From Pseudovirgaria hyperparasitica (taxonomy: Eukaryota): 64,000 nt of DNA. Each line of letters opens with the position of its first letter. Positions within the stretch are counted from its first letter, which is position 1. The stretch lies in NCBI GenBank assembly GCA_010093815.1, contig ML996567.1; one strand, 5' to 3'. Position numbers and translations under genes: made by a program. The notes beneath the pieces are model-generated. The model was not told the DNA's origin. It saw nothing but the letters and a program-made list of their open reading frames with translations, and did no database searches. This document shows positions 1,846 through 49,100 of the stretch, piece after piece.

Positions 1846-4800
1846 TCAAACAGCCTCCTTGTCATTAATCGGATTAGCAGCCTTCTGCACCCCATCCTTG
1901 ACGCCCGCCTCCACCTTCTCCTTGCCCTCGCTTGTCTTCTTCCCCTTCTTCCCCTTGCCTTTAGGCAGACTAAAGCCGCTCATATTCCACTTCTTCACGC
2001 GGAACAGGTAGTACGTCAGCACGGCCATGGTAATATTGAACCCGATAAACGCCCACATGATGCCATAGTCGCGCCACCGCTCAGAGTAGTAGATGTTGCT
2101 GCCGGCCAGATACTGGTCGCCGTTGCTCAACGGGCAGTATTGGCAGTTGGTCATGGCCTCGGGGTTGCGCAGATAGCCGGGCGCCACGGCGAGGTAGTCG
2201 CGCATGTAGTCGCCACAGCTCGTGTTTGCGGGAGGGTCAAACTGTGAGGTCTCGGCGGCCGAGCACTCGATTGCGCGCTCGTGTAGTTGGGTGCCGGAGA
2301 TGCCGCCGACCCAGTAGGTAAAGGGGCTGACGCGGTACATGAAGATCCAGAAGCCGGGCAGAGCGTCGGGGGATTGCAGGACACCGCAGAAGAGCGTGGA
2401 CATGAGCGTTCCGAGCGTGACGAGGCCGGAGGCGGTTTGGGCGTCTGGGAGCGCGGCGATGGTCATGTGTGCAAAGGACGAGGCGTAGATGAAGAGCTGG
2501 ATGACGAAGAGAAGCACGAGACCCTGGCGCGCAGATGACTGGATGCCGATGACGGCGTAGTAGTATGATGCCCAAGTGACGATGGCGACAATGACTTGCC
2601 AGGGGATTTCAATGAAGATGTTGGCAATAACGAACGCTTTCCAAGAGTATGCTTTGCTCGGCCGTTCACGGACCTCGTACAAGGCGCGCTGTGTGATAAA
2701 CAGCGGCTGTATTTGCTGCACAAGCGTAGAGAAGATTGTGGTGAGCATGAAGACGGAAAAGATGACATTTTGCATGCCCGCCTGAGTGGCATCAGCGCCG
2801 TAGAATGTAAAGCCGATGAAGAGGCCTGCAGCGATTCCGAGCGCGAATTTGGCGCCGATGTACGAAGGCATGCGCCAGTATTGTTGCGTGACGCGCCATG
2901 TTACTTCAATCAATTGAGTGGTAAAGGGCATTGCGAATTCGGAGTGCGAGTCTGCACCGTCATCCTCGACAGCTTCATGTTGTTTTTCTGAGTGGATGCG
3001 GTCGATTTCAGTGCCTACAGCTTGGCAGTTTTCACTTTGTTTCCATACGTCAAACCAATCCTCGCCTTGGTCGTTGGTACCGTTGTTGACAATCTCGAGC
3101 ATGTATTCTGCGGGATTCTCTTCATCATCGCACTTACGGCCCCCATTCGACTCAAAGTAGTCTAGGAGTGTGCGAGAATTCTCTCCAATCTCGCCAAAGT
3201 AGACGGTTTTTCCGCCCTTGGCCAAGAATAGAAGCCGATCGAACTCCTGGAAGAGGATGGCGGAAGGTTGATGGACGGTACAGAGGACTGCCTGGCCTGC
3301 ATCCGCAAGTTTGCGAAGGAATGAGCAGATTGCCCACGAGGATTGAGAGTCCAGTCCACTGGTAGGCTCGTCGAGAAACAATAGAAGTTTTGGCTTGGCC
3401 GACAATTCCACTCCGATTGTCAGGAGTTTGCGTTGCTCAACGTTCAATCCTTGTCCAGGTACACCCACAACAGCATCAGCAAAGTCGCGCATGTTGAGCA
3501 TATCGATGACCTCTTCGACAAAGTCGTATTTCTCTTGTTTCGAAACGGTCTTGGGTTGACGTAGCATGGCACTGAATCGAAGAGACTCTCGAACGGTGGC
3601 AGTCTCAAGATGTAGATCTATGACGTGTCAGTGGAGTTTACTATGACTCAATAGTTCACCTACCTTGCTGTTGAACATAACCTGTCTTGCGCTGGAAGCT
3701 GGCGTCCAGGGGCTTGCCATTGACTAGCATGTCACCAGTAATGACACCCATAGTGGTCCTCTGAGCCAACACATCCAAAAGAGTAGTCTTTCCAGCACCG
3801 CTGACACCCATCAAGGCGGTCAGGGTTCCGGGCTTTACCCAACCAGAAACATTGTCGAGAAGGCGGCGACTTCCATCTTTGACCTCAATGTCGTACACAA
3901 CATCTCTCCAGGTGAAGATATCCTTCTGAGGCTCGATTGCTTTCACTTCGCCTGCATCGCTGTTACCCTTGACTTCACCACCATTAGCCATCTCCTCATC
4001 GGGTGAGGCTTGCTTTGCACCCTTTTGGAGAGCTGCAGGGACACGACCACGCTGGAAGACGAGAACTTCGGCAGTGCTAGTCATGGAAGAATTGAATTCG
4101 ACCGCGACAAAATATATCGCCATGAAAAAGACCAGAAAGGCGATGAGGATACCGAAGTTGCGCCAGACGTGGGAGTAGTAGTACTGGTAGTTTTGTTCGA
4201 TGAACGAGTCGCCACTTACTGTCGTCTGACCCGCGACAGCACCTACGATAGAGCATATGAACGAGTCTCCAACCATGTACGAAGGAACAAAACTCGAGCA
4301 TTCAAACTGTCGACCGTGGAATTCGTTGGCGATAAGGATCTCAAAAGCGTAGAATAGTGGATTGATCCATCTAATCCAAGAGAACCAGGGATGCATCTGT
4401 GGTACAGCAATCACGAAGCCGGTGTAGATGACAAGAGCGAGAACCAAAACACCGGACAAAGCCATGGCCTGTGAGACGGTCTTGGTAAGCGCGGCCATGG
4501 TCCTGAAAATAGCGCTCATTACAAACGTCGAGAGGTATGTAATAAGGAAGTAGAGGAAGAATTGAGCCGGCTCCACACGCAGACCGGCCATGAAGTACAA
4601 GACGATATTGAAAATTGTGGAGACGACAAACTTGACGGGTATATCGAGCACTATTCCCGCTGCAGCCTCTGTCGCAGGGTGATAGAAGGCGTACGAAGCA
4701 TGTTTTTCGACAATCGGACGTTGCGCGTACAGACTATTGATTTCACCAATGGCAGTCAAAGCGTTGAGGAGGGCAGCCATGAACAGAACCGAGCCTTTGG

Positions 4801-6536
4801 CGAAGAAACCACCCGAGGCGTTGGGAGTACCGAAAAAGACAGAACCGATGATGAGAGCCAGGATCAGATTCATTACAGACTGTGAGACGGTTGCCGATTT
4901 ATCTCCCATGACACGTTGGTATGCTCGTCGAGTACAGAGTCGGACCTGCATGACCGTATTGATCGTGTAAGGAGACCCTTTGCGGACATGCTTGGCTTGC
5001 AAGTATTGCTGCTGCTCTCTCAACTGAGAGGCAGCACCAGAGTTCTCCAATGGATATTCCTTCTCATATGAGTCCATTTCGGATTGGAGCTCTTTGTATT
5101 CTGGCGATTCTCGCCAGTATCGTTCAAAATCCTCAGGTGTACGAGGAACCTTGTCTTCCATACCTTCTCTTGGCTTGCGTTCCGAGGCGTTCGTTACGGA
5201 GGTAAGGAAGTCTCCAGTTGTCTGTCTCTGTGGTGACAACCAGCCTTGTCTTTCGAAGAAGGCTTTAGCCTTTGAGGCGGGGCCAAAGTATATCTGACGC
5301 CCTTCGTAAAGTACTGTAGCCTTGTCGAAAACATCGTAAATGGCTTGACTAGCCTGGTAAATGGCTACGGCACTTGTAGCGCCACTGAAATCGGATGCCA
5401 TTCGCAAGGCTTGGACAAACTTCAAAGCCGTTGCCGAATCCAAACCTCGAGTGCTGTTGTCCCAGGCTCCCATAGGAGATCCAGCCAGCACCATTTCTGC
5501 AATGCTGACTCGTTTTCGTTCACCTCCACTCACACCGCGGATAAAGTCGTCACCAACTTTCGTATTGTAAGTATGGCTGAGACCGAAAACTGCCATCACA
5601 ACTTTTGCGACATGCTGGCTCATCTCTTCACGAGACATATCTTTGACTCTATGGGATGGAGTGCGTGCACTGGCAGCAAATTCAAGAGTCTGACCGACAG
5701 TGAGATGCGGAAAATGTCTATCGACCTGTATAAAGTGTCAGCAGCATTTCACGTCCTCACTTCATATCACATACTTCCTGATTGTATATCGTCTCTCCCC
5801 GAAACTCCTTGATCATCTGCTTCTGATCGATACCGTTATAGTGTATTGTGGAAGCCGGATCTAGTTCAAGGCCGTGCAGCTGTCCAGTCATAGTTTTGAG
5901 CAGGGTACTGCATCCTGAACCAGGTCTTCCAAGTACAATCAGGAGCTCACCGCTCTTGACTACACCGTCGAAATTCTGTAGAATCTGCTTGTGTTCTTTC
6001 TTTCCAAAGCTCAGAAGCTCTCCTAGTCTTAATGGGGCCATCAGGATGCTGCCGACAGTCCCTTGCAACTGAACTGCGGACCCGGTACCCGAGACATTCA
6101 AGTTCCTGTACAAGACTCCGGTGCGTTTTGGTGTGACACCTTCGGCTTCGAAATGCTGCATGAACTTGCGTATCCATTTGCCCAAATCGAAGCTTTTGCT
6201 GTTGGGATCCAGCACCGGATCGTTGTCTTCAAGTCCAGAAACCGTGTTGGTCCGCGAGAGACCATCCGTGAAGCTGGACTGTCGTCTGGAAAGGGCTGTG
6301 ACGATCCGTCGGAGTTCGTCTCTATCAGAATCGGTTATCATGGCCTCGCTATTCCGTCTGCTTGTCGCCGCCGGGTCATTTTGGCTGCCCTTGACAATCG
6401 ACGCGTAGGCGGCATCTGAATCATCACTAGAGTTTATGGATTCAACTTCCTCCTTAGGCTCGACATATTCATTGACAGGAGTCTGTTCTGTGCTAGACGA
6501 CTGCATCTGGCTATCCAGGGAACCTGGATGCGCCAT
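1846..6536 (-). CDS. Full-size PDR/ABCG multidrug ABC transporter (Cdr1/Pdr5/AbcG1-like); introns 5726-5774 and 3618-3663
   Basis: NBD1 Walker [10 protein letters not shown] (Cys for Lys, typical of PDR) and signature [16 protein letters not shown]2 GVSGAGKTT and [15 protein letters not shown]; two TMDs. Splicing restores [13 protein letters not shown] and QQ|DLHLET. Confidence 0.97.
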
Positions 6537-7312
6537 TGAATCAATCGATTCCACCGAGGGCTTGCCGCTATGATTCAGCTATCAAAGAATTGAAATTGAG
6601 TAACGACACTGGATGGAAATGATAGCTACAGGTGTCGATGTTGTGTTGGGCGGTATATGTATGTATGACGAGCAGTGCATCGGACGACGAGGGCAGGAAG
6701 ATGAATATAAGTGAGTAGTAGCAGTAGCATCAAAAAGCCAACAAGTTCGAAATGAGATCATTCGAGCGCATTGGACCGAGCTGGAAATGGTAACGCGCGA
6801 CACATAGCAACGGTACCAGACGGCTAAGGACCAGTTAACCACTATTTCCAGCCAGTACGGACGAAGAGAAGCTTAAAGCCCGAGTCTGGGCGTCAACTAT
6901 CAACACACCGAGCGGAGGGTCGGAGGAGCCGGAGCAACGTCCAGGAGCCAGTTGAGAAGGACATTTTGCGCCTCAACAACACAACAACAGTGGAGAGGTG
7001 TAGTGGAAAGTCATGGCAACAACATGGGAGACAGATGTATCCGGGTCCGACCAGATGTGTAAGAGCTGTGGCGTCAGGCTGAGATCGACAATAAGATTCT
7101 CGCATGGCCAGGATTGTTTGCGATCCGAATACGCCTACGTTTGGCACACACCACCCCCCTCCCCCTGCCCTCTACCCCCGTCTCACCTCCTCACCCGGCA
7201 GGACATGGCAAGCAACAGTAGCCGGGAACAGGCGTGGAGCCGCTGCGGCTGGGCTTGTTTGGCCGCGCGCTGGCTGCAGTTTAGGCGGGCCTTCACCAAA
7301 TCTTTAGGGGCC

Positions 7313-34378: not shown

Positions 34379-35405
34379 CCTTTTCAAGGTATCTTTGAGT
34401 GCGCTCATTACGTAAACGATAACCACAGTACATTTAGAATAAGTAAAGCCTCAGAACACTACAATTTCTTTATACGGTTTGAATTAGTATAATCCTCTCC
34501 AGTCCTTCAGTACATATGACCAGTAGTCGTCCGCCCGTTATAGCTACGTGACGCGTACCGTTGCATTTAGTTTAGCTATGCCGAGTATAATGATATGATT
34601 AGGTGGTCTTAGCACCCTAAGATATTAAATTGAATCTAGATCTACGCGACTTGTAAAGTCGAAGCTTTATCGTAGTGGAGTTATAAGTCCTTACTACCGA
34701 TTAAAACTTTATAAGTCTAGCGACCGCCTGGAGTATGGCATACTCAACGTTGCAAAGAATCAAACGTTCCTTATTATCTAAGATCATTTCTATTCTCCTA
34801 CTCTCCTATAAGGAAATTCGATGAAGAGTTGAAAGCTTTTGGAAGTACTGGAGCACCAGCGTCCAGAGTGTGTGTCTGCTACTATATCCACGAAGAACTT
34901 TTGGGTCAGTTTGTTCAGAAGTTGGATTCTTGCATCTGGACGGTAAATATCACGTTCGTTGATCTCGGTCTGCGCTATGATACTACCACAGTCCAAGCCC
35001 AGCGCGATATGAGCTCTGTCCAGACACAACTAGCTTTGGAGGTGGAGTGAAGTAGTTATACATCTCGAACCTCGCCACGGGAGAAATCTACCATGACCGT
35101 GATGCATACGGCGACTACCGTGAAGCTGCCTAGCGGCACGTGAAGAAGGTTGTGCATCGATTTCCGAAATTGCTTCCTCTGATAGTAAGACATACTTGTT
35201 GCTCATCTAGAGAAGCATTAGGTCTGCATTCAATGATATCGTCCATAAGAAATATAACGCATATCATGACTCGTATTATTTCCGCACAATGACCTCCCTT
35301 GCATGAATGTAGCGACGTATCGCCATGTCGTTTTGACGCCGTAAATGCTGGAATTATGTATTATATGAGACGTATCGCATGGTGTCTTCTCATCTTCTCG
35401 ATCTT

Positions 35406-36112
35406 TCATGACTGCTCTTGCTGTACAGTTTGCTGATTCCATCGTTAGTAAGGTCGCATAACCAGGACTGCCATATGCACGTACCACCAACCAATCCATA
35501 CCTTCGTCCACACCTCTTCCATCGATTGCACTACAAGCAACGATACTCCAGTTCCGATCTTTTAATTCTCCCAGCTTCAACGCTTCGCTTATCTCACCCG
35601 CTCCTTTTGCGCCGGGTTGGTCTTGTTTATTCGCAAATACCAGTAACGCCGCATCTCTCAGCTCTTCTTCATTCAGCATGGCCGCTAACTCCTCACTCGC
35701 TGTGTTCAATCGCTCTATGTCTGTGGAATCGATGACGAATATTACGGCTGCGGTGTTTGCGTAGTAGCACCGCCAGTATGGCCTGATTGAAGTTTGCCCT
35801 CCAAGATCCCACACGTTAAAATTTAGGTTCTTGTATGTGACGGATTCGACATTGAAGCCGATTGTGGGAATTGTGGTTACGACTTCGCCAATTTTAAGAC
35901 GGTAGAGAAGAGTCGTTTTACCAGCGTTATCCTGGAAGGTGGAGTTAGCACCCAGTCTAATAGCCTTGGAGCCTTGCAAGAGGGAACCGGCATTCGTGGC
36001 TTTACTGTGTTCAGAATGCCACTGAGAGGGTACTAACCAGTCCTAAAATCAATATGCGAATCTCCTTTTTCGACCATAACAGCGCTGTGAACTTTGATAT
36101 CATGCCACCCAT
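35406..36112 (-). CDS. ARL1: ADP-ribosylation factor-like GTPase Arl1; 2 introns
   Basis: [56 protein letters not shown]; last exon QTVQQEQS*. Confidence 0.96.
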
Positions 36113-36522: not shown

Positions 36523-38075
36523 TCATAGCTTCGCAAAGACAGTCGTGACTTCACCACTCATGTCCACCAACGTGCTCTTGTTCCGCAACCAGGCTTCAAT
36601 TCCTTTCCTACCATTTTCAACACCAACACCGCTCATTTTCCAACCGCCTACGCTCATTTCTGCTGGTGATTCTCCCCAGGTATTTATCCAGGTTATGCCA
36701 GCCTGTAACTTCGAAATAACCTTGTGCGCTGCGTTCAGATCGTTCGAGAATACACCGGCAGCAAGACCCATCTCTGTTGAGTTTGCCCTTTTAATCACTT
36801 CGTCAACACTCTTGTACGTCAGGATGCTCATAACGGGTCCAAATATCTCCTCTTGAACGATCTTCATATCATCTGTACAATCTGTAAACACCGTGGGCTG
36901 GACCCAATAGCCCTTTTGGTAGTTCTGGCTAACTGCTTGAGGTAAAGTAAGTGGTTCCGAGCCACCATAGATCAGCGTCGCCTTGTCAGTCTGAATACCA
37001 TGCTTGATATAGCCCTTGACCTTCTCCCAGTGCACTCTGCTGACGAGTGGTCCGAAGTTTGTGGTCATATCACTAAGGTCGCCGGCACGAATGTACTTCA
37101 TCTTCCCCAGAAGGATTTTCTCGAAATCAGCCTTCTTTTGCTCTTGTACAAATACCCGAGTACCATTCGTGCAAACCTGGCCGGTGCTGAAGAAGTTTGC
37201 CATCATAGCCCCATCCACAGCTTTCTCGAGATCGGCGTCCGGGAGAATGACAATGGGCGATTTACCTCCAAGCTCCATCGTCACATACTTCATGTTACCA
37301 GCAGCGGATCCTGCGACCTTTTGTCCAGTGCTGACTTGACCTGTAAATGAGACTTTGGCGATGCTCGGATGCTGGATAAGATAAGCTCCGACTTCTCCGG
37401 ATCCTTGGACGATATTGAAGACACCAGGTGGGACACCAGCCTCAGTGTATATCTCAGCGAGAGTGTTCGCATGCAGCGGAGTGAATTCAGAAGGCTTGTA
37501 AACCATCGTATTCCCTGCTGCCAGACAAGGTGCTGATTTCCATAGCGCTCTAGTACCCATTAGATCTCGAAAGCCGTGCCTGAATTCAGCTGTTCTTACA
37601 TTTGAATCGGGTAGTTCCAAGCTCCAATACCTGCACATACACCCAATGGTTCTTTCTTTGTATATACCCAAGCATCTTCTCGTAGCTGAGTAGTTTCGCC
37701 ATTAAGCCCGCCACCACCAATCATATTTGCAAAGTACTCTAAAACATCGGCACCAGTCACGACATCGACGGTACTGGTTTCACTGAAAGGCTTCCCAGTG
37801 TCGTCTGTTTCGACCTTTGCGATCTGATCATTCCGCTCTCTAAGGATTAATGCAGCTTTCTGCAGTATGCGCGCGCGCTGAACGTATGTTGTGCTTGACC
37901 ATGACGCGAAAGCTTTCTGGGCAGAAGCAATGGCAGCGTCTATGTCACCCGTAGAGGAAGTCTCGATCGCACCATTGGGCTGCGCTGTTGCAGGGTTGAT
38001 TGACTGGAATGTCTGCTTTGAGGTGGCCCATTGTCGCTTGCCATCATAATACAGCGATTGAGTAGCGTACGTCAT
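36523..38075 (-). CDS. Betaine aldehyde dehydrogenase (BetB-type ALDH) with PTS1 (-AKL); 1 intron
   Basis: [55 protein letters not shown] (catalytic Cys), [15 protein letters not shown]. Confidence 0.9.
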
Positions 38076-38372
38076 CTTGATGAAGGTCCAAAGCCAGAAA
38101 TGTTCAATGAAGTGAGCACCAGATCCGACCTAGGTGAGTACTTCAGTATTTTGGCCCCGGGACCAGTTGATGATGGAAGTGCTTGATTGCAAGCTCATCT
38201 AATTATGGATGGATCAAGGATTGCCTGTTCGGGCGGGGATTTCCGCGTTACGCCAAGCATTTACAGTGTTCAGGTGGCCGCCCCGGGCCCACAGATGAGA
38301 TCACGACGTTCTTATGTAATATCAAGTGCAACTTTTCGGACTGTTCATTCTTCAACGCAGTGATCGTCCAAC

Positions 38373-39506
38373 TCATGCGAGCTCGCCCTTCTTGTATGGA
38401 AATTGCGCTCTGAAATGTTCCGCAATCTGCGTCCGTGTCGCCACCCAGACACCCTCCTTGGCAGCAATGTACTCAACGAACTTCTTCAATGCGGAGAAGC
38501 GTGACGGCTTGCCAATACATCTACAGTGGAGTCCAATTGTCATCATTTTAGGCATACCCTCTTGTCCCTCTTCATACAAGATATCGAATGCACCCTTAGC
38601 TGTTAGAGGTAGGGTATAGTCTAGGGTGCAGAACTAACCTTGACATGATCATAGAAATCGTTCGGAGCACCGAAACCCGTCGGCACGTTGAACTTATAGT
38701 CTTACACGCATTGCTTTCAGTATCATGATTATCTGTCAAATAAGGGCGACCGTAACACATACCGTTGCAATCATAGCTGTAAGGAACCATCAACATTCCT
38801 TCAGGCTTCGCTTCATCTTTTTCTGCCGGAACGTCGACCCAGTAGGGTATGTCGTCAGCATAGGAGTCGGATTCCCACAGTAGAGGCAGCCCCATCTCCT
38901 TGTATACATCCCAAACAAGAGCATGTGATCTGGGCGAGAGTCGTCCATAGTACCATCCCTTCGGATACACACCAGAAACATCCTTAATGACTTCGATTCC
39001 TTTACGAATGTAATCTTTTTCTTGCTCTGCGGGCATTTTGTGATAGTCAATCCAACGGTAGGCGTGCGAAGCGATATCATGACCGTTCTCAACTGATGAT
39101 TTAGCCACAGCTGGGTTCTTTTCAATAGCCTGTCCAACAGCGTACAGAGTGTATTTCATTTTATATTTGTTGAACAGGCGGAACAGCCTCCAGACACCAC
39201 TGCGAGAGCCATAGTTGTACTCGGATTCAATATTCACAGCGCGCTCTTGCATATGAGGCTGGCCACCTACGGCTGTCAGTCATTCACAGGTAGAATCATG
39301 CACTCCTTACCTGAAGCTTCCCACAAATGTGTCTCCGAATGAACATCACCATTTAGCACAGTATGCTCTGCACCTTCTTCATAATTGATCACGAAAGACA
39401 CTGCGATCTTTGCATTGTTTGGCCACCTAGGATTATGCGATTTCTCTCCATAGCCAACAAGATCACGTGGGAAGTCGTAATGCTCGTCCCATTCGAAAGG
39501 CTTCAT
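38373..39506 (-). CDS. PuuE-type allantoinase / polysaccharide deacetylase-fold (CE4) protein; 3 introns
   Basis: FPRDLVGYG...WPNNAKIAVSFVINYEEGAE, ESEYNYGSRSGVWRL, SHAYRWIDY, DSYADDIPYW, PYSYDCN|DYKF, MMTIGLHCRCIGKPSR. Confidence 0.9.
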
Positions 39507-39701
39507 GTTGGCGGCAGTAGCACCAAGTTTGTATGGTATTGAAATGCGAACCTCATCTGAGAGATGGGCTGACAAGAACTTCCTGAGCCTACTTATACTG
39601 CTCTCAATTCACTTGAGCTACCTGACAACAACTTCCGCACCTTGCCTTGTCACAATTGTGATACGTCTTTACCAAGTATGATCGGGATTGGCATCATATT
39701 C

Positions 39702-40101
39702 CGATAATGCGTCAATGAGACACTATCACCAGGCCGGTATGAAGGTCTGGCGGGGCTGGGGAGTGTTGATAAGGGCGTGGGTCCATAATGCCGGGGCTTT
39801 GTTGCCTTCGGACAGTCCGACAACATTGGAAGCGCGACTCGTAGAGCATTACCCGTAATCAAATTTGACAGAGCCATGAGTCTCATTATCTATTGAAGAC
39901 ATAGGGTGAGACACAGCGACAAGATGATGTTAATGGGATAACGGAAGAATAAGAGACAGGACAGGATTTCTAACTAAGACCAAAGGAAGCTAAGAACGCC
40001 ACGTGGATCCATGTGTTAGCAATGCCCGCGTTTTTCACCTCCATCTCAACGTAAGTCTTGTACAGAGACAATCTAAGCTCTTGGCATACTGATCATTATC
40101 A
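39702..40101. promoter_or_regulatory. Divergent promoter with five HGATAR (AreA-type) sites and the palindrome TCGGAC-A-GTCCGA
   Basis: HGATAR at 39702, 39723(rc), 39767, 39886(rc), 40096(rc); palindrome at 39808-39820. Confidence 0.5.
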
Positions 40102-40171
40102 GAGACATTACTGGATACTGATCGTATTGTGGATTGGAGTGTTCTGATATTGCTATCGAGCTCGAAGGGCT

Positions 40172-41335
40172 TCTGACTACGAGCCGCCAGTAGATCTCAA
40201 AAGATTATCACGCAGGGGTATTCATCGCGTCTTACTATCAAAACAGGTCAGGACAATTTGTCTCAAGGACTGTATTGCTGTAGCAAGTGTCCCTTAGTCA
40301 CTAGGGACTACGATCATCGAGCCATCCGGATGGACCCCAGACAGCGACGCTACTGTGGAGACAAGCGCCCTGGAAGCAGGTGCCGAAATAGTAGGAACAA
40401 CGAATTGCGAGAACTGGCATTAATTCACCTCTTCGCTCAGTAGTGCCCACGGTATTGTCGAGATCCCGCACGCGTCCGGTCATTTCGCAGGAGGAAGCAC
40501 ATTTGGCGCTGCTGCTCTCGTTACAGCGGGCCTGGTGGACATAGCCATTGGTGCAGATCAGGGGAGCACTATCTGCATTCCAGCTTCGCTTCGTGGATGT
40601 AAGTCACTCCCAGCACGAGATCCTAGTAGTATACTGATTAAAATTGTAGGTGTTGGCTTAAAGCCCACTTATGGACTAGTGCCTTACACGGGATCTGCAT
40701 CAAATGAACAATCATGTGGGACCCTTAGTATTGGACGTTCTGGACATTTCTTGGCGCTTAAATGCTATCTCAAGTTACGATGGTATCGATGACCGTACCC
40801 TAGCGGCCCAAGCACGGCTCGGTCGAGTTTGCGAAGGTCTCTCTCGTATCCAATGCAAGCGATCTCACGGTCTTCAAGATCGGCATCCTAATCGAAGGAT
40901 GCAGTGGACATAGACTATAGATATACGGTTGTAAAAACCGCACAGAAGTTACAAAGTCTTGGTGCAATTAGGCCATCGAATAACGTGTTTCGGGAACCCA
41001 AACACTGAATAGTCCCAGTGGCAGACGAGGATAATTTTAAAGGGTATGATGCTCTGATCACTGCAATTACCAGCTTCGTAGCCCTCAGGTATGGTAGACC
41101 TTGCACACAAACTGCAACAATTGCCCCTATGTTCGGCTTGATTGCAACTACTGCCATATTTGAATACAACCAGGCAGCAAGCCAGCTATCAGCATACCCG
41201 TGAGATATCTATCCGCCGAAGAAGAGAGGATATCATGCTTCCTGACGGTATGCAGATCATAAGTGGCTTATGGAAAGATAGCAAGGCTCTATGAGCTCAC
41301 GAGCGGGAGACGGAATTCGATTGGAACGAAACTAA
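40172..41335 (+). pseudogene. Amidase-signature (Ser-cisSer-Lys) amidase pseudogene
   Basis: DYEPPVDL, ICLKDCIAVASVP*, DATV, CENWH*, AGGSTFG, GADQGSTICIPAS, GLKPTYGLVPYTG, frameshift into HVGP, DGIDDR, LPDGMQIISGLWKD, FDW. In-frame stops at 40295 and 40421, a frameshift near 40705-40712, and large internal deletions. Confidence 0.9.
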
Positions 41336-41902
41336 ACCATAGCTAATAATGCGATAGGCATCAGTCTCTCCCATGAAAAATCAGACGGCCCAGAAAGACC
41401 CCTGACTATATCCGTTATACCACGACACTTGAGGTATTTTCTCACCAGACCGGTATCATCTGCAAGTTCATTATCATATACGAAAGTCTGGATGTGACGA
41501 ACATCTGGAGATTCCAATGCGGAGTACCTAGGTGGATCAAGCAAGGATGAAGATAAGCCACCCTCGCCTGAACCGTTCTCGGTCAGGAATACTCCGGTCA
41601 TGCATACCTATCTCGACTGCTGAGTCGTCATGAATCTTCCTATCTTCAGTGATACAAGTGACGATCGAGACTCGACGACTCGACGCCACCTTGATAGGCT
41701 TCCAAGATAGCTCTATGATACGGACTGGAACTGGAACCCCCAAATTGTTTTCTTGTTATCAGCTTCTAGCATATGGCTCCTGGCAACTTTGGATGTCTTG
41801 CGGGCAGAACAGGCCATTCCTCGCTCAACATAATATTCGCCTTCAAGAATAACACTAAGCCATAAGCATATCCTTTGCTTGACACCTCTTTCCTTACCTG
41901 AC

Positions 41903-43746
41903 ATGAAGAAGTTTTCTATGCGCAGCATAAAGCGTGCAGTGGCAACAGACAATGAGATGACATACTCGTCCAAGTGGATCAATCATGATCTTGTGCCTTC
42001 ACCGCCTGAGCGACGAACATGGACTTGGATATCTATGAGTTTATATTGGTGGAGTGTATGAAACCTAAAATTTTCAGTTGAGCTGCAGCTAACGTGTTTA
42101 AGGGAGCCTTCAATACGAATCAATGGTCCAGTGGATCAGCCTTGATAAGTGTTGGTCTTACTCTGTCGCAAGCTGTCGGCGCAGCCATCATTGGACATCT
42201 GATCTCTTCAGGAGTCGCGCTATCCATGGGACGTCCTGGTGCTACATATCACATTGGTTATCCTGTCATCGCTCGCGGTGTATTCGGCATGTATGGAGCC
42301 TACTTCTTCGTTGCCCTCAGAGCATGCGTTGCCATTGTCTGGTACGGCGTACAAAGTTTCTACGGTGGCAAGCTGCTCAGTGTCGCTATACGCTGCGTAT
42401 TTGCTAGCCACTGGCAAAATATCCCGAATTCCCTGCCTGAAAGTTCTGGGACAAATTCGAGGGAGCTTCTTGCTTTCTTCCTGTTTTGGCTCATCCAGTT
42501 TCCCTTTCAGTTCGTACATCCAACAAGAATTAGGCATCTTTTCACTGTCTCGAGCTGTGTAGTGCCTGTGGCCTGCATCGGCCTATTTGCATGGTGTGTA
42601 AATTATGGTGGTGGACTCCATGCTAACGAGCTGGGCGTCACTACACAAGTGAGTGGAGGTGCGCTTGGATGGGCATTCATGACGGGCATCAATTCCGTGA
42701 TGGGCACTCTCTCACCACTTTTGGTCAATCAGCCAGACTTCACACGTTACTGCAAGAAGCCCAAGGACGCCAGTTGGCCGCAAGCCGCGTCTATCTTCTT
42801 TAGTAAGACTTTAATGCTCTTCCTTGGGTGCGGAGCAACGGCTGCGACGCAGGCAAAGTTTGGGACGGCATTTTGGAATCAATGGGATTTGCTGTCGGCT
42901 ATTCTGGACAGGTTTTGGGGTCCAGCGGCGCGGGCGGGCTGCTTCTTTGCCTCAATAGGATTTTGCCTCAGTATTCTCACCACTAATTTTGCAGGTAAGC
43001 ATCTCGACCTGAGAGTTCCAATTAAGTACTAACAAAGTTGTGTAGCGAACAGCATGCCATTCGGATCTGATGTCACAGGTCTGCTACCAGAATACATTAC
43101 CATCAAGCGAGGACAAGTGATCTGCAGTATCCTTGGAATTGCTGTCGTACCTTGGGAGCTACTTAGGAGCGCACAGGGTTTTCTAACGTTCCTCGGTTCT
43201 TACTCAATATTCATGGCACCTTTGTGCGCAATCATCATCTGCGACTACTTCATCATCAAACGTGGGAATATTCACGTTCTATCGCTATATGATCCGACCC
43301 CTGGAAGTCTATACTATAATATCAAAGGCTGGAACTTCATTGCCACGGGATGCTGGGTCACTGCTATGCTTTTGGGGCTGCCTGGACTGATAGGTGCGTA
43401 CGACCCCCAGCTTGTCTCCGAAATTGCTGTGCACATGTATCAGACCGGCTGGCTCATTACATTCGTTGCTGGATTTGTATTCTACTTCGTCATGGCTGGA
43501 TTCGTGTTTCCACCTAGAGTACTCCCGGAGAGGTCTGCAGGTCCTTTTGTTGAGATGAGGAATAGCAAGGGAAAATTGAGGTACGAAGCATTGGCTGCTA
43601 CAGATGGGTATCTCGAAGGCGAATCTATTGAAGATTTACATCATAGTGTATCGAAGATCAACCGGGTGCCAGTGATCGAGCAGAAGATGTCAGAGAATTC
43701 GAGACAGAAGGAGGCTTGTGTGGCTTCAAAGGAACTCATTGTTTGA
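41903..43746 (+). CDS. NCS1-family (Fur/Dal4-like) nucleobase/allantoin permease; introns 42056-42102 and about 42995-43046
   Basis: WINHDLVP..PERRTW, YHIGYPVIARGVFGMYG, WYGVQ, NQPDFTRY, ANSMPFGSD, FLTFLGSYSIFMAP, DYFII. Confidence 0.94.
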
Positions 43747-44808
43747 TATTACCGGGTAGAGACTGTGACTGTAACCCAGGTTTTGGGTGACGGGATACTC
43801 TATAACGAATGAAGCGTTATATCTGGACATGTGACCTGCCTCAACGCCGGGAAAAACCCCCTAGACCAGCACAAGCGCCACATCCTACGAAACAGTTGTA
43901 CACCCTTAATGTTAGACCTTCTTTTTATAACAGCCTTCATGACAATTGAGGTAAAGTACAAGTCTTTAGGAAAAGACCAGACTGTCAATTCGTCATTCGC
44001 ATGATCTAATCGAAATGTGTAGAATATTGACTCACGATGTTTGTGCCCTTCAAATGACTCGAGACGAGATCCTGAACCTCGCCTAGGGGTGTCGTCAAGG
44101 AATCCCTTATCTGGAGGGATGGCTGTCTTGGGCGCAGCTTTACAAAACGATGTCAGCGCCGACGGTAGAACTGCAAGGACTTGAGAATGATCAATTAATG
44201 ATGTGCTGATAAGAATTGGCATGGCCGAACGCCAGAACATGATGATTTTGGACGGAGTGAGCTCTTTTAATTCACATCATCCTTGCTCATGAGAAACGAG
44301 GGGTACAGATCATTCTACTATCTTATTGTGTCCCAGGATAGATTCGAACGTGATAAGTATATGGGAACTAGATGCTATTCCGTGCAATATCCAGATGACC
44401 CATCTTTATATGATTGTCGATTATTGCTGTTGGAGGCAAAAACTCACATTTCTTAGCTTACACATGGGCAACCTTAGATATCATCATAGCCGCGGGTCGC
44501 CGTCGCCTTTCGGTCATATCGCCGTCGGCTTGCTACCGGCATATCAGCCGTAATAGGCTCTGTGAAACCCTGTCGAGTCCTGAATAGCAGCGAAAACCGC
44601 TCCAGAATTTATGGGACGATATGGGCCTCCCAACAGTCCGACGAAAACGTGGCGATACGGGCACCCTTGGCTCCATGGGTCCCAACGTATGACCGTAGAC
44701 CCTGATATGATGAGTCTTGGTGTTATCAAAGATCATTATGTATCTCTGATATACTGTTTCTGAAGTACTACCTGAGCCATCTATCTGAGCACTGTTGAGT
44801 TCATAATC

Positions 44809-46091
44809 ATGGTCCAACCAAAGAACGCCGACTCGAAAATTTTCTCGCAGCTGCGCATCGCCAATGGCGATATTAAACTAAACCACAGGATCATTCTTGC
44901 ACCTCTGACACGGAACAGAAATGTGCCATGCATACCCAAAGATCCGTTGGAGCCAGTCCGCACCTGGTGTCCTGATGAAGTTGTGGTGGAATATTACAGA
45001 CAACGCACTACAGAAGGTGGACTACTGGTTTCGGAAGGCATCAATCCAAACCAACAAGGAGGTGGTATGCCTGGAACACCCGGTCTATGGCTGCCTGAAC
45101 ATATCGCTGGATGGAAGAAAGTCGTCGATGCGGTACACGCGAAGGGCGGTTATATCTATTGTCAATTGTGGCATCAGGGAAGGACTACAATCGAGCACAT
45201 GACGGGAATGTGTACGGTAAGCCCATCGGGCGTAGCATGGAATGATCCTGAAGAGCTGTATCCATATCCAGTCAAGGGCTGCAGGGGCGAGGGTGAGAGT
45301 CTGAAGCTGGCGGACTATACATCGATCGAGATGACCGTCGATATGATCAAGGATACTATCAGCGACTTCTGTGAGGCCGCGAGAAGAGCTGTGGAGGAGT
45401 GCGGCTTCGATGGTGTGGAGGTCCATGGGGCGAACGGGTATGTATGTCATTCTAATGGTCTTACCTTGACCGACAGAACTGCAGATATCTCCCTGAACAA
45501 TTTTTGAGTGATAATACCAATCTCCGGACTGATCATTACGGAGGAACCCCACAAAAGGCTTGCAATTTTTCGTTGGAGCTGATGGAAGGTCTTGCAGGCA
45601 CTGTTGGACAACAGAAAGTAGCCATCAGACTAAGTCCTTTCGGCATGTACAACCAAATTCGAGGAACGAAGCGCATGGAAACTTTCACGCATCTTTGCAG
45701 ACAGCTCAAGTCACGTCTTCCAAACATGTCATACGCATCGTTCATCGAACCACGGTATGAACAAGTCTTCAGCGCCAACGAAAAAGACGCATTTCTAAGA
45801 TCTTGGGGGCTTGCGAGCGTAGATTTGTCTATATTTCGAAAGATCCTTGGTAGCACGCCGTTCCTGACTGCGGGTGGCTGGAATGACACCAATGTCAGGG
45901 GTCTTGTGGAGTCGAGCCAGTATGATGCTGTCGTTATGGGGAGATGGTTCACCAGTAATCCAGACCTTCCACAGAGGCTGTTGGAAGGGAGGCCACTGCG
46001 ACAGTACGAGCGGGAGCGATTCTATGGGCCCTTTCAAGACCGAGAGCGTGGATATACAGACTACGATCCGTGGTGTCAAAACGAATCATAA
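44809..46091 (+). CDS. Old yellow enzyme family NADH:flavin oxidoreductase; intron 45438-45484
   Basis: ILAPLTRNR, YYRQR, QLWHQGR, GFDGVEVHGANG|YLPEQFL, RTDHYGG, IRLSP, GRWFTSNPDL, FY...GYTDY. Confidence 0.95.
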
Positions 46092-47104: not shown

Positions 47105-49100
47105 ATGTTGGCCTCATGTTTTGCTGTTTTGTTGACAGTAGCGTGCCTGCAGGGGACCGTTGTCGCCAGGCAACAGGGTGCGACGGTCATATTTAGCAAT
47201 ACTAATCGTTTCTTGTTCGACGTGGACGGAAAGCAAATCGATGCATATGGGGCAAAGATCAATTGTAAGCCTCTGAAAGATATTTCATAGTTCCACGCTA
47301 ATAAACACCTAGATTTCAGTTAGTGATACTACCTGACAGCTTCCTATCAAATATTGACGCAAAACACTACAGATGGAAAGTACTACTTTTATGGTACTTC
47401 TTGGGCCAACCCATCAAATTTCGGCTTCAAGTTCTACTCCTCCGTTGATCTTGTGAATTGGTAATATTCTCTCGACCACATTGTGGGCCTTGGACTGATT
47501 CTGCGCGTAGGCAATATGAGAATTTTATCAATGCCACTGGGAGTGGAAGACCTCACGTCATTTACAATCAAGCGACAAAGAAGTACACACTATGGGCTGA
47601 TGCCAACACCGGCCAACTTGTTCAAACGTCAGATTCTCCAGCCTCAGGCTACAGCTCTGGAAAATACGCGGATCTAGATCCCCAGTATTCGAGCTTGCAT
47701 CCCGCTGATGCTGGAGTTGAATCATTTGGTATGAGAGCTACTGTATGTTTACGAGGATATCTCTGATTTTTGCAGGCGATAAAGGGTATCTCGTTTGGTC
47801 GGCCCTAAATTTTGCGGACCCGCGACAAGGGAGCATTTGGCCTCTGATCTACCAAACAATGCACATTAGCCCTCTGACAAGTGACTTTGTACGTATCCCG
47901 TACTATGAAATAACAATGCCTGTACTGACGACAGACAGACAAATACAGACACGACGAGCTACAACGTCACATCTGCGGCTTTCGACCTGGTCGATCAGCA
48001 AACCGAGTCTCCGGATCTCTTTATGCGCAATGACACTTTCTGTAAGCTAGAGTAGCTTTTCGAGGCTTCGGGCGACTCTAATCTATTGGCAGACGTGTCG
48101 GCAAGCAATTCATGTGCATTTTGCAGCGGTTCAATTGGGGTCCTCTATCGCTCAAAGTCCATTCAAGGACCCTGGCAACGGCAAATATTGTCGGGCTATT
48201 CCTGTGGCGGTCAGGTCGAAGGTATTCTGCCTCTTACTGACCCAACAACTGGAAAAGTCACGCACGTCTGGCACTCCACTACTAACCGTAAGTTTGCAGC
48301 CAGCCTATAGGAGCTGGTCTTTTGCTGAACATACTATAGCTGGTGGCCCTCGCGTTGGTCTCAATGGCCATATCTTCCAGCCTTTACAGTTCAATGCCGA
48401 CGGCAGTGCAAAAGAGCTAGACTGCTCTGACGGCGCCCGTTTCAGAGTCTCGTTTACCCCAGGGACAGGTGACACAGCAAGCGGTAGCTACACAAAAGCT
48501 GTGGATAAGGCGCCACAATTTGCCAACGTAAGGACTCCAAAATGTGGTAACGTTGAAGACAATAACTGAGAATATCTGCAGTACCGTTCTGTCTGTGACT
48601 CAGACGTCTACTACACACTCCATCAGACCTGGCGTACATCAAAGTCGGGCATTCTCCAGTCTGTATCTGTCAATGTTGCGGCTGGGGGTAACAAGAACGC
48701 GCTCGATATCAAGGTCTTCCGCTTCACCAACATCCAACAGCTTCTGTCCGCAGGCTACAAGTACGAGCTTCTGGGCAGCGCCACGTTCGTTCCCAGTGCC
48801 AATCTGACGGAGGTATTCGACACAGCTACCGTGTCTGTCAACAGGGCGGTCAAGAAAGGTGACATGCTGGGCTTCAGCTTCGGAGAGAAAAACGTGCTCG
48901 GGTTTGGCCTTGGTAATTATATTCCGTACTGCCATCTAGAGTATGATCTCAACGCGGTGGAGCAGCAATGCGATCTGCAGCAACCGGTGCTGATTGAGCA
49001 GGGGAGTGGACAGAATTCTCCAAGAGGGTTAAATGGGATGGAGAGTCCGATTAAGGTGCGCAATGGAAAGGGCATGAAGTTTCACGCGAACATTGTGTAG
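47105..49100 (+). CDS. Secreted GH43-like glycoside hydrolase (GH43_24/exo-beta-1,3-galactanase-like) with C-terminal extension; about 9 introns
   Basis: Signal peptide; FDVDGKQIDAYGAKIN|YF|NGKYYFYG, YSSVDLVNW, GRPHVIYNQATKKYTLW, ESPDLF, SASNSCAFCSG, GPW, SCGGQ (Gln typical of GH43_24). Confidence 0.8.

Follow-up and report, generated by a model that had tools for sequence, protein, structure and literature searches.

A possible nitrogen-scavenging gene module around a PuuE-type hydrolase, with a decayed amidase, in the mycoparasitic fungus Pseudovirgaria hyperparasitica

Do neighbouring genes for a permease, a reductase, and two hydrolases in a fungal genome constitute a catabolic unit, or do they adjoin by chance? 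This question is raised by a block of genes at positions 36523-46091 of a 64,000-nucleotide stretch of Pseudovirgaria hyperparasitica DNA (GenBank assembly GCA_010093815.1, contig ML996567.1), the whole of which is called the window. By Pfam, the block contains, in order, the domains Aldedh, Polysacc_deac_1, Amidase, Transp_cyt_pur, and Oxidored_FMN. An earlier note on this DNA, made from the sequence alone, had placed here, in the same order, genes for an aldehyde dehydrogenase (ALDH), a hydrolase of the PuuE type, a broken amidase, an NCS1 permease, and an old yellow enzyme (OYE), and had read them as a nitrogen-scavenging cluster; the domains were found at these coordinates. The reading favoured here, and considered rather likely, is that the block represents a conserved fungal module by which a small cyclic imide or ureide would be used as nitrogen source, with the amidase decayed in this organism and the ALDH gene standing outside. 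The proposed cluster is upheld for the hydrolase/amidase pair and in part for the permease and the OYE, but not for the ALDH.

The argument starts from the hydrolase, a protein with CE4/NodB fold. Its gene (38373-39506, minus strand) is modelled with four exons (39506-39311, 39266-38763, 38700-38639, and 38594-38373) and encodes 327 amino acids. Besides the Pfam domain Polysacc_deac_1, the nearest NCBIfam family is TIGR03212, PuuE, on which the largest exon alone scores 156.9 bits. Among solved structures, 3s6o (E 2.3e-41), 3cl6 (E 3.7e-36), and 1z7a are closest. Full-length homology to solved structures of the PuuE group is seen with P0001, a protein 86% identical to the window hydrolase, whose residues 23-336 match 3s6o, 3cl6, and 1z7a with E values of 4.7e-97, 1.6e-90, and 6.3e-90, respectively. 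In the available portion of PMC11424739, the Asp-His-His metal triad is described as being replaced in PuuE-type enzymes by Glu-His-Trp, catalysis is ascribed to Glu36 and His259, and 3s6o is given as 91% identical to BpIH, an imidase opening 3-substituted glutarimides. The triad and both catalytic residues are present in the window hydrolase, in the motifs NYEEG (E43), SHAYRW (H133, W137), and GLHCR (H277); by count in the printed alignment, the motifs of P0001 align with E36, the SHGYRW motif, and H259 of 3cl6. The protein also looks functional: each of the 85 columns with conservation in at least 29 of 30 homologues is retained. Judged from these comparisons, the gene is assigned as that of an intact PuuE-type metal-independent cyclic amidohydrolase or imidase. 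Orthology with the cyclic imide hydrolase HxnM was considered and rejected: the structure closest to HxnM-type enzymes, HpPgdA (3qbu), gives no better match than E 2.5e-12 (86 residues), while E values near 1e-40 are reached with the PuuE group.

With which enzyme would such a hydrolase cooperate? For linkage in other genomes, the matches were examined for consecutive numbering of their locus tags or GenBank accessions. On this basis, the CE4 gene directly adjoins the amidase gene in annotation order in 13 of the 14 scoreable named fungal genomes, which is part of the recurrent co-localisation that the earlier note had named as a check. The CE4/amidase pairs are found in the Onygenales Helicocarpus griseus (AJ79_02016/02015), Emmonsiellopsis PD_5 (FQN50_002629/002628), Emmonsiellopsis PD_33 (KAK2781457/58), and Onygenales PD_40 (FQN55_005475/005476); in the Chaetothyriales Fonsecaea erecta (AYL99_11306/11305), Cladophialophora carrionii (OCT44045/44044), and Rhinocladiella similis (RBB50_000959/000958); in the Botryosphaeriales Diplodia seriata (SLS55_008540/008539), Neofusicoccum parvum (GME27707/27706), N. 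ribis (SLS56_007561/007560), and Saccharata proteae (KAF2089300/299); and also in Aureobasidium pullulans (THY23335/23334) and the basidiomycete Jaapia argillacea (KDQ57990/57989). A tree was calculated for 55 CE4 proteins, picked from 113 matches plus cluster members, with the others omitted for size. In this tree, the window hydrolase and all 11 amidase-linked ascomycete rows form one clade (24 rows, SH-aLRT 98), to which a clade B of CE4 proteins from Aspergillus, Fusarium, and Zymoseptoria (18 rows, SH-aLRT 100) is sister. A PuuE-like gene of this sister clade, from Fusarium poae, is annotated as fused to an amidase-signature amidase that is of another type (30% identity to the first), and this fusion is an independent pairing of both enzyme classes. 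Taken together, the comparisons make conservation of a CE4/amidase core pair in fungi well supported. In the window, the two genes are divergent, as had been claimed, with a 515-bp spacer (39507-40021) between their start ends as putative bidirectional promoter.

The second member of the pair has not survived intact in P. hyperparasitica, and the earlier claims of a broken amidase and of a route decaying here are both borne out. The remnant lies on the plus strand from 40022 to about 41345. Pfam Amidase (PF01425) is recognized on 40424-40792 (E 1.6e-10), and, with X set at the stops, the remnant shares 66-72% of 118 amino acids with intact fungal amidases. The pieces cover about amino acids 57-306 and 426-531 of intact orthologues and follow one another in frames 2, 3, 1, 2, 1, and 3, which therefore implies at least five frameshifts; at least three in-frame stops (40295, 40421, and 41292) are present, and about 100-120 codons are missing through an internal deletion. 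An open frame is gone, and so are the invariant Ser, Gly, and Arg of the amidase signature: S196, G217, S218, and R220 are replaced, with loss of the catalytic serine, the window having GGSTFG and QGSTIC versus GGSTSG and QGGSIR in the family. The gene is a transcribed pseudogene whose introns (40051-40102 and 40599-40649) are still spliced. The nature of the former enzyme can be judged from the intact orthologue P0125, the nearest structure of which is the Rhodococcus amidase 3a1k (E 6.9e-82) and which, with 442 bits, stays under the NF005565 cut-off of 545; by these matches, the family is placed in the Rhodococcus-amidase-like branch of the amidase-signature family. Two relatives, P0140 of Paramyrothecium foliicola and P0170 of Paraconiothyrium brasiliense, are annotated as fusions to zinc-type alcohol dehydrogenase domains (PF00107, PF08240), and a different reductase may adjoin the amidase there.

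Since the amidase has decayed, the last step must be either lost or taken over by another amidase. In Aspergillus nidulans, deletion of the amidase gene hxnN is described as weakening growth only, with other amidases contributing (PMC9304392, in the part available). Given that this deletion merely weakens growth, the route may still run in P. hyperparasitica; alternatively, the hydrolase may have some other function. Alongside the dead amidase, the genes for hydrolase, permease, and OYE are all intact.

Whether the block is expressed could be judged from splicing. The exon models were hand-built with short GT..AG introns, and the introns were checked against contigs of public runs of the same organism, X1 being a DNA run and X3 and X4 being of unrecorded kind. 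All modelled introns are skipped in X3 and/or X4 contigs and none is skipped in X1; for the X3/X4 contigs, neither letter differences nor indels relative to the window are listed. As evidence, only the sequence bridged by the contigs was used, and not their depth. Skipped in contigs of both X3 and X4 are the three introns of the hydrolase gene (39267-39310, 38701-38762, and 38595-38638), the two introns of the permease gene (42056-42102 and 42995-43045), and the single ALDH intron (37550-37599); the two introns of the amidase pseudogene are skipped in X3/X4 contigs, and that of the OYE gene (45438-45484) is skipped in one X3 contig. The hydrolase gene, the amidase pseudogene, and the permease and OYE genes are covered by spliced contigs and are transcribed. 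Introns 38595-38638 and 42056-42102, both confirmed by contigs, have an AAG acceptor in place of YAG, a few bases past a CTAAC branch-like site.

The permease and the reductase complete the candidate set. The NCS1 gene (plus strand) has three exons (41903-42055, 42103-42994, and 43046-43746) and encodes 581 amino acids from its first ATG; the deposited P. hyperparasitica protein P0191 (563 amino acids) equals residues 19-581 of this model exactly and starts at Met19. Its two large exons score 182.4 and 110.7 bits on Pfam PF02133 (cut-off 23.5) and, scored apart, 206.5 and 104.8 bits on NCBIfam TIGR00800 (cut-off 353.1). Among solved structures, it has a single relative, the hydantoin permease Mhp1 (E 2.6e-12). 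By these scores, the protein is classified as a Fur-type permease. The OYE gene (plus strand; exons 44809-45437 and 45485-46091; 411 amino acids) scores 133.3 and 81.1 bits with its two exons on PF00724 (cut-off 27), matches an NCBIfam subfamily of N-ethylmaleimide reductases weakly, and has the plant enzymes OPR1 and OPR3 as nearest solved structures. In the spliced model, a HGANGY motif spans the exon junction; HxxN plus Tyr are functional residues of the OYE family. For OYE1 and HxnT, these roles are also named in PMC9304392, as far as that source was available. With 21 relatives at E <= 1e-30 among 1.84 billion representatives, the best being 55, 54, and 53% identical, the subfamily is rare and very small.

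Several neighbourhoods argue for membership of these two proteins. Permease orthologues, 71% identical, have tags or accessions directly adjoining those of the CE4 gene in Emmonsiellopsis PD_5 (FQN50_002630), Onygenales PD_40 (FQN55_005474), and Emmonsiellopsis PD_33 (KAK2781456), and the order there is NCS1-CE4-amidase versus CE4-amidase-NCS1 in the window. In Trichodelitschia bisporula, NCS1 (KAF2400568) and CE4 (KAF2400571) lie three accession numbers apart on one scaffold. For the reductase, the OYE of Knufia obscura (PMZ80_008916; 53% identical, 404 amino acids) is encoded consecutively with a PuuE-like gene (PMZ80_008915). A link in Fusarium was tried and rejected: the NCS1 gene (CCT73035) and the clade-B CE4 gene (CCT73975) of F. 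fujikuroi are on different contigs. From this distribution, module membership of permease and OYE is regarded as partly supported, and the OYE as a probable accessory member.

Could the hydrolase and the amidase alone be the functional unit, with NCS1, OYE, and ALDH adjoining by chance or through inherited local synteny? The earlier note had counted all of them in. For the permease, this holds in so far as it stands beside the pair in a distant lineage and in another order, but not in three of the seven scoreable genomes; over these seven, it is adjoining in three, three genes away in one, and without link in three, being unlinked or not found among the matches listed. For the OYE, it holds in so far as a member of its subfamily stands beside a paralogous PuuE-like gene, but in a single other species. 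Such gaps are what a unit consisting of the pair would lead one to expect. On the other side, NCS1 adjacency recurs across two fungal classes, and plain inherited synteny is argued against because the recurrence comes with different gene order; moreover, the OYE subfamily is tiny, yet a named member of it adjoins a PuuE-like gene. A functional unit of the pair alone is considered improbable, and the module that includes permease and OYE is retained.

The observations that weigh against such a module are the following. Consecutive tags give annotation order and not distance or orientation. In the fourteenth scoreable genome, that of Aureobasidium subglaciale, CE4 and amidase genes share one 273-kb contig but are 12 accession numbers apart. 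The three Onygenales with adjacent NCS1 count as one lineage because they are close relatives. Of the three genomes in which the permease is without link, Rhinocladiella similis has its NCS1 gene on another contig than the CE4 gene, and for Helicocarpus griseus and Fonsecaea erecta no NCS1 orthologue is among the 120 matches listed. The OYE link, seen in one of the two named-member clusters among the three best representative clusters, depends on a single further species, in which, moreover, the CE4 protein belongs to a paralogous third lineage (61% identical to the window hydrolase, 75% to that lineage). In metagenomes, the best 80 of 593 confirmed CE4 relatives, which are unspliced, 41-49% identical, and crowd out fungal contigs, have NCS1 as neighbour in five, ALDH in three, and amidase and OYE in one locus each. 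Around 40 prokaryote relatives of the amidase, neither CE4 nor NCS1 is found, OYE once and distant ALDHs six times. By Pfam, no gene for a pathway-specific transcription factor is seen in the block. The hydrolase orthologue P0003 scores 361.9 bits on TIGR03212, below the equivalog cut-off of 424.6, and therefore not even the name allantoinase is secured for the hydrolase. Finally, loss of the amidase may have left the module without function in P. hyperparasitica.

What reaction sequence might such a module support? The Fur-type permease would import a small ring compound bearing either -CO-NH-CO- or a ureide group. An activated or conjugated C=C bond of this ring may first be saturated by the OYE acting as ene-reductase. 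The PuuE-type hydrolase, which would need no metal, would open the ring at a C-N bond to yield a half-amide or ureido acid, from which the Rhodococcus-type amidase would then free ammonium. In this order of steps, the enzymes are other than those of the DAL, PYD, and Rut routes, as had been claimed. An imide would fit as substrate better than allantoin, because the conserved partner of the hydrolase is a primary-amide hydrolase. Allantoin, hydantoin, or a dihydropyrimidine might serve as substrate as well.

If the ring were allantoin, the NCS1 protein would be an allantoin permease, the CE4 protein a true PuuE replacing or doubling a DAL1-type enzyme, and the amidase would act on allantoate or a ureido product. 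This route gains some weight from PuuE being the nearest NCBIfam family of the hydrolase, from the end-to-end alignment of 3cl6 with P0001 with conservation of the catalytic residues, and from weak matches of the NCS1 exons to allantoin-permease models. In addition, a homologue from Ustilago maydis was labelled PuuE1 by its authors from substitutions in the metal triad (PMC8092297, in the part available). However, P0003 stays under the equivalog cut-off, as mentioned above; the NCS1 exons reach 84.3 and 66.9 bits on the allantoin-permease equivalogs, far below the cut-off of 620; the partner amidase is nearest to a general amide hydrolase of Rhodococcus; and Pfam reveals no gene of urate or allantoin catabolism in the window. 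To our knowledge, allantoate breakdown needs no amidase-signature amidase. An allantoin route is thus held to be unlikely.

A pyrimidine might also be considered. The canonical PYD steps serve as the template on which such a route is laid out: the NCS1 permease would import the base, the OYE would reduce uracil or thymine, the PuuE-type enzyme would open the dihydropyrimidine, and the amidase would remove the carbamoyl group. 'Uracil permease' is the source name of many permease relatives, and the four enzyme classes can conceivably be mapped onto the four steps. The source names are, however, automatic; we know of no evidence of OYEs reducing uracil; the nearest solved relative of the amidase acts, by the depositors' naming, on primary amides and not on ureido acids; and nothing here favours pyrimidines over imides or pyridones. 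This non-canonical reductive pyrimidine route is regarded as very unlikely. A broader version would have a pyrimidine- or pyridone-like ring degraded by enzymes that are all non-canonical, with the OYE in place of dihydropyrimidine dehydrogenase, the PuuE-type enzyme in place of dihydropyrimidinase, the amidase in place of beta-ureidopropionase, and the Fur-type NCS1 protein feeding the route; this is considered quite unlikely.

The module that would act on an imide or ureide has a parallel in the lower nicotinate pathway of A. nidulans, in which HxnT, an OYE, HxnM, a cyclic imide hydrolase, and HxnN, an amidase, act in succession (PMC9304392 and PMC8478523, in the parts available). The three enzyme classes are alike, and their order is plausibly alike as well, that is, ene-reduction, imide opening, and deamidation of the half-amide. 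As with the CE4 and amidase genes, divergent mini-clusters are described for hxnM and hxnN, and the GATA factor AreA controls the hxn genes (same excerpts). The differences lie in the subfamilies. According to the available text of PMC9304392, the nearest structures are HpPgdA (3qbu) for HxnM, FAAH1 for HxnN, and OYE1 for HxnT, whereas the window hydrolase is matched by the PuuE group with E values of 2.3e-41 to 3.7e-36, the window amidase family by Rhodococcus 3a1k, and the window OYE best by plant OPRs. The transporter is of the NCS1 family in the module and of the major facilitator superfamily in the hxn system, and by Pfam no relatives of hxnR, hxnS, hxnV, hxnW, or hxnX are seen in the window. 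The best reading of this comparison is that the module would be a non-orthologous parallel of the HxnT/HxnM/HxnN steps, each enzyme being drawn from a different subfamily.

Bacterial systems offer partial likenesses. PuuE of P. fluorescens (3cl6) and BpIH of Burkholderia phytofirmans share end-to-end homology, the Glu-His-Trp triad, and the catalytic His with the fungal hydrolase; in the alignment, gaps indicate an insertion in the fungal clade relative to the bacterial enzymes, and the fungal hydrolase is paired with an amidase-signature amidase, as is the case in only one of the 80 bacterial-type loci. In bacterial cyclic-imide metabolism, an imidase and a half-amidase convert the imide via the half-amide to dicarboxylate and ammonium. 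The two-step logic is alike, but the gene pair occurs in none of the 40 and in the said one of the 80 prokaryotic loci examined. In bacterial hydantoin-utilization clusters, Mhp1 is found beside metal-dependent hydantoinases and carbamoylases and not beside PuuE-type or amidase-signature enzymes; common to both is an NCS1 importer beside a ring-opening and a second C-N hydrolase, with Mhp1 itself being a distant relative. A bacterial operon as origin or counterpart was rejected, the unit being absent from the 80 metagenome and 40 genome loci of prokaryotes.

Would the genes be regulated together? The earlier note had described the promoters as GATA-rich. HGATAR sites occur at a mean of 3.19 per kb over the 64-kb window, or 1.6 per 500 bp with a 95th percentile of 4. 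The 553-bp region upstream of NCS1 (41350-41902) is the GATA-richest of the whole window, its eight sites equalling the maximum of all 500-bp windows, and the CE4/amidase spacer, with four sites in the 516 bp counted, is at the 95th percentile; six sites are found in 1059 bp upstream of the OYE gene. The description thus applies to the NCS1 upstream region and the spacer but fails for the ALDH gene, with no site in 297 bp. Nitrogen regulation of the remaining genes may be suspected from this pattern. No transcription-factor domain is detected by Pfam in or beside the block. The CE4/amidase spacer contains, at about 39807-39820, the perfect palindrome TCGGAC-A-GTCCGA (CGG-N5-CCG). An all-k-mer search, with random-region draws and shuffles as controls, yielded the 9-mer ACAGTCCGA, which has three exact copies in the window, all of them in the regions upstream of ALDH, CE4/amidase, and OYE. 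Sites of the related motif (A)CAGTCCG(A) are located at 38336-38344 (ALDH), 39807-39820 (CE4/amidase), 41721-41727 (NCS1), and 44633-44641 (OYE), CAGTCCG thus being present upstream of NCS1 as well. Sharing of a 9-mer by at least three of the four regions is not significant, since it is reached in 9% of the random-region draws and in 2% of the shuffles; in view of these 2-9%, ACAGTCCGA is a lead only, and the result suits a unit restricted to the hydrolase/amidase pair.

Contigs across the upstream regions complement this picture. In X4, the contig of the CE4 gene stops at 39981; that of amidase and NCS1 begins, by record coordinates, near 40055. In each of X3 and X4, a single contig (40055-43814) connects the amidase pseudogene with NCS1, covering 41350-41902 without interruption. 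Transcripts starting at the promoter of the pseudogene may reach the permease, such a contig being no proof of a single transcript. About 200 bases past the NCS1 stop, a plus-strand GT..AG intron (43949-44020) is spliced out in an X3 contig; because no open reading frame longer than 67 amino acids follows, it would be a 3' untranslated-region intron or belong to a non-coding transcript. This spliced stretch between NCS1 and OYE was for the same reason not counted as a gene, nor was a minus-strand open reading frame in the same gap (43800-44276, 158 amino acids), which is without Pfam match.

The ALDH gene (minus strand; exons 38075-37600 and 37549-36523; about 500 amino acids) had been assigned an aldehyde-oxidizing step, which is not sustained. 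Scored apart, its exons give 502.5 and 194.1 bits (sum 696.6) on the BetB family NF009725 of NCBIfam, with a cut-off of 593, and the best solved structure is the betaine-aldehyde dehydrogenase 2wox of P. aeruginosa (E 2.7e-122); by family, it is most likely a BetB-type betaine-aldehyde dehydrogenase. As ring opening followed by deamidation yields no aldehyde, and with GATA sites lacking upstream, the gene is most likely a bystander outside the module. The family assignment would also accord with the hydrolase and amidase forming a unit by themselves. The protein ends in -AKL, coded at 36523-36531, which we take to resemble a peroxisomal PTS1 tripeptide.

On its left side, the block is flanked by an Arf-family GTPase gene (35230-36042, minus strand), and on its right side by open reading frames without Pfam match. 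Downstream of the OYE gene, an unannotated plus-strand gene with open reading frames at 46.8-49.1 kb, likewise without Pfam match, shows a peculiar joint: X3/X4 contigs skip 108 bases at 47264-47373 and carry six other letters, ATTTCA, which looks like a 6-nt micro-exon. Further away, the window contains a gene for a PDR-type ABC transporter (1849-6578, minus strand; ABC2_membrane, PDR_CDR, ABC_tran, and ABC_trans_N) and genes unrelated to the finding, namely thiolase, succinyl-CoA-ligase-like, Aim21, Rpc31, cation-efflux, and DUF3433 genes.

The literature search returned no description of such a cluster; a phylogeny of HxnM paralogues in the supplement of PMC8478523, which lay outside the search, may touch these genes. 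By the source names of the matches, fungal PuuE homologues are widely called 'chitin deacetylase 1' or 'polysaccharide deacetylase', and in the literature found no physiological role is attached to them. Against this background, there is a tight pairing, spanning Eurotiomycetes, Dothideomycetes, and a basidiomycete, between one clade of PuuE-like proteins and a particular amidase; genes for an NCS1 permease and for a rare OYE are also found repeatedly next to PuuE-like genes of this kind. This leads to the testable hypothesis of a second fungal nitrogen-scavenging module of the 'reduce, open, deamidate' kind, which would have been assembled independently of the hxn genes and which suggests candidate substrates for orphan Fur-type transporters. 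If the reading with a pyrimidine- or pyridone-like ring were true, a physiological role would follow for both the orphan Fur transporters and the look-alikes of 'chitin deacetylase 1'. In the mycoparasite P. hyperparasitica, the cluster is seen in the course of losing one of its members, with the remainder intact and transcribed.

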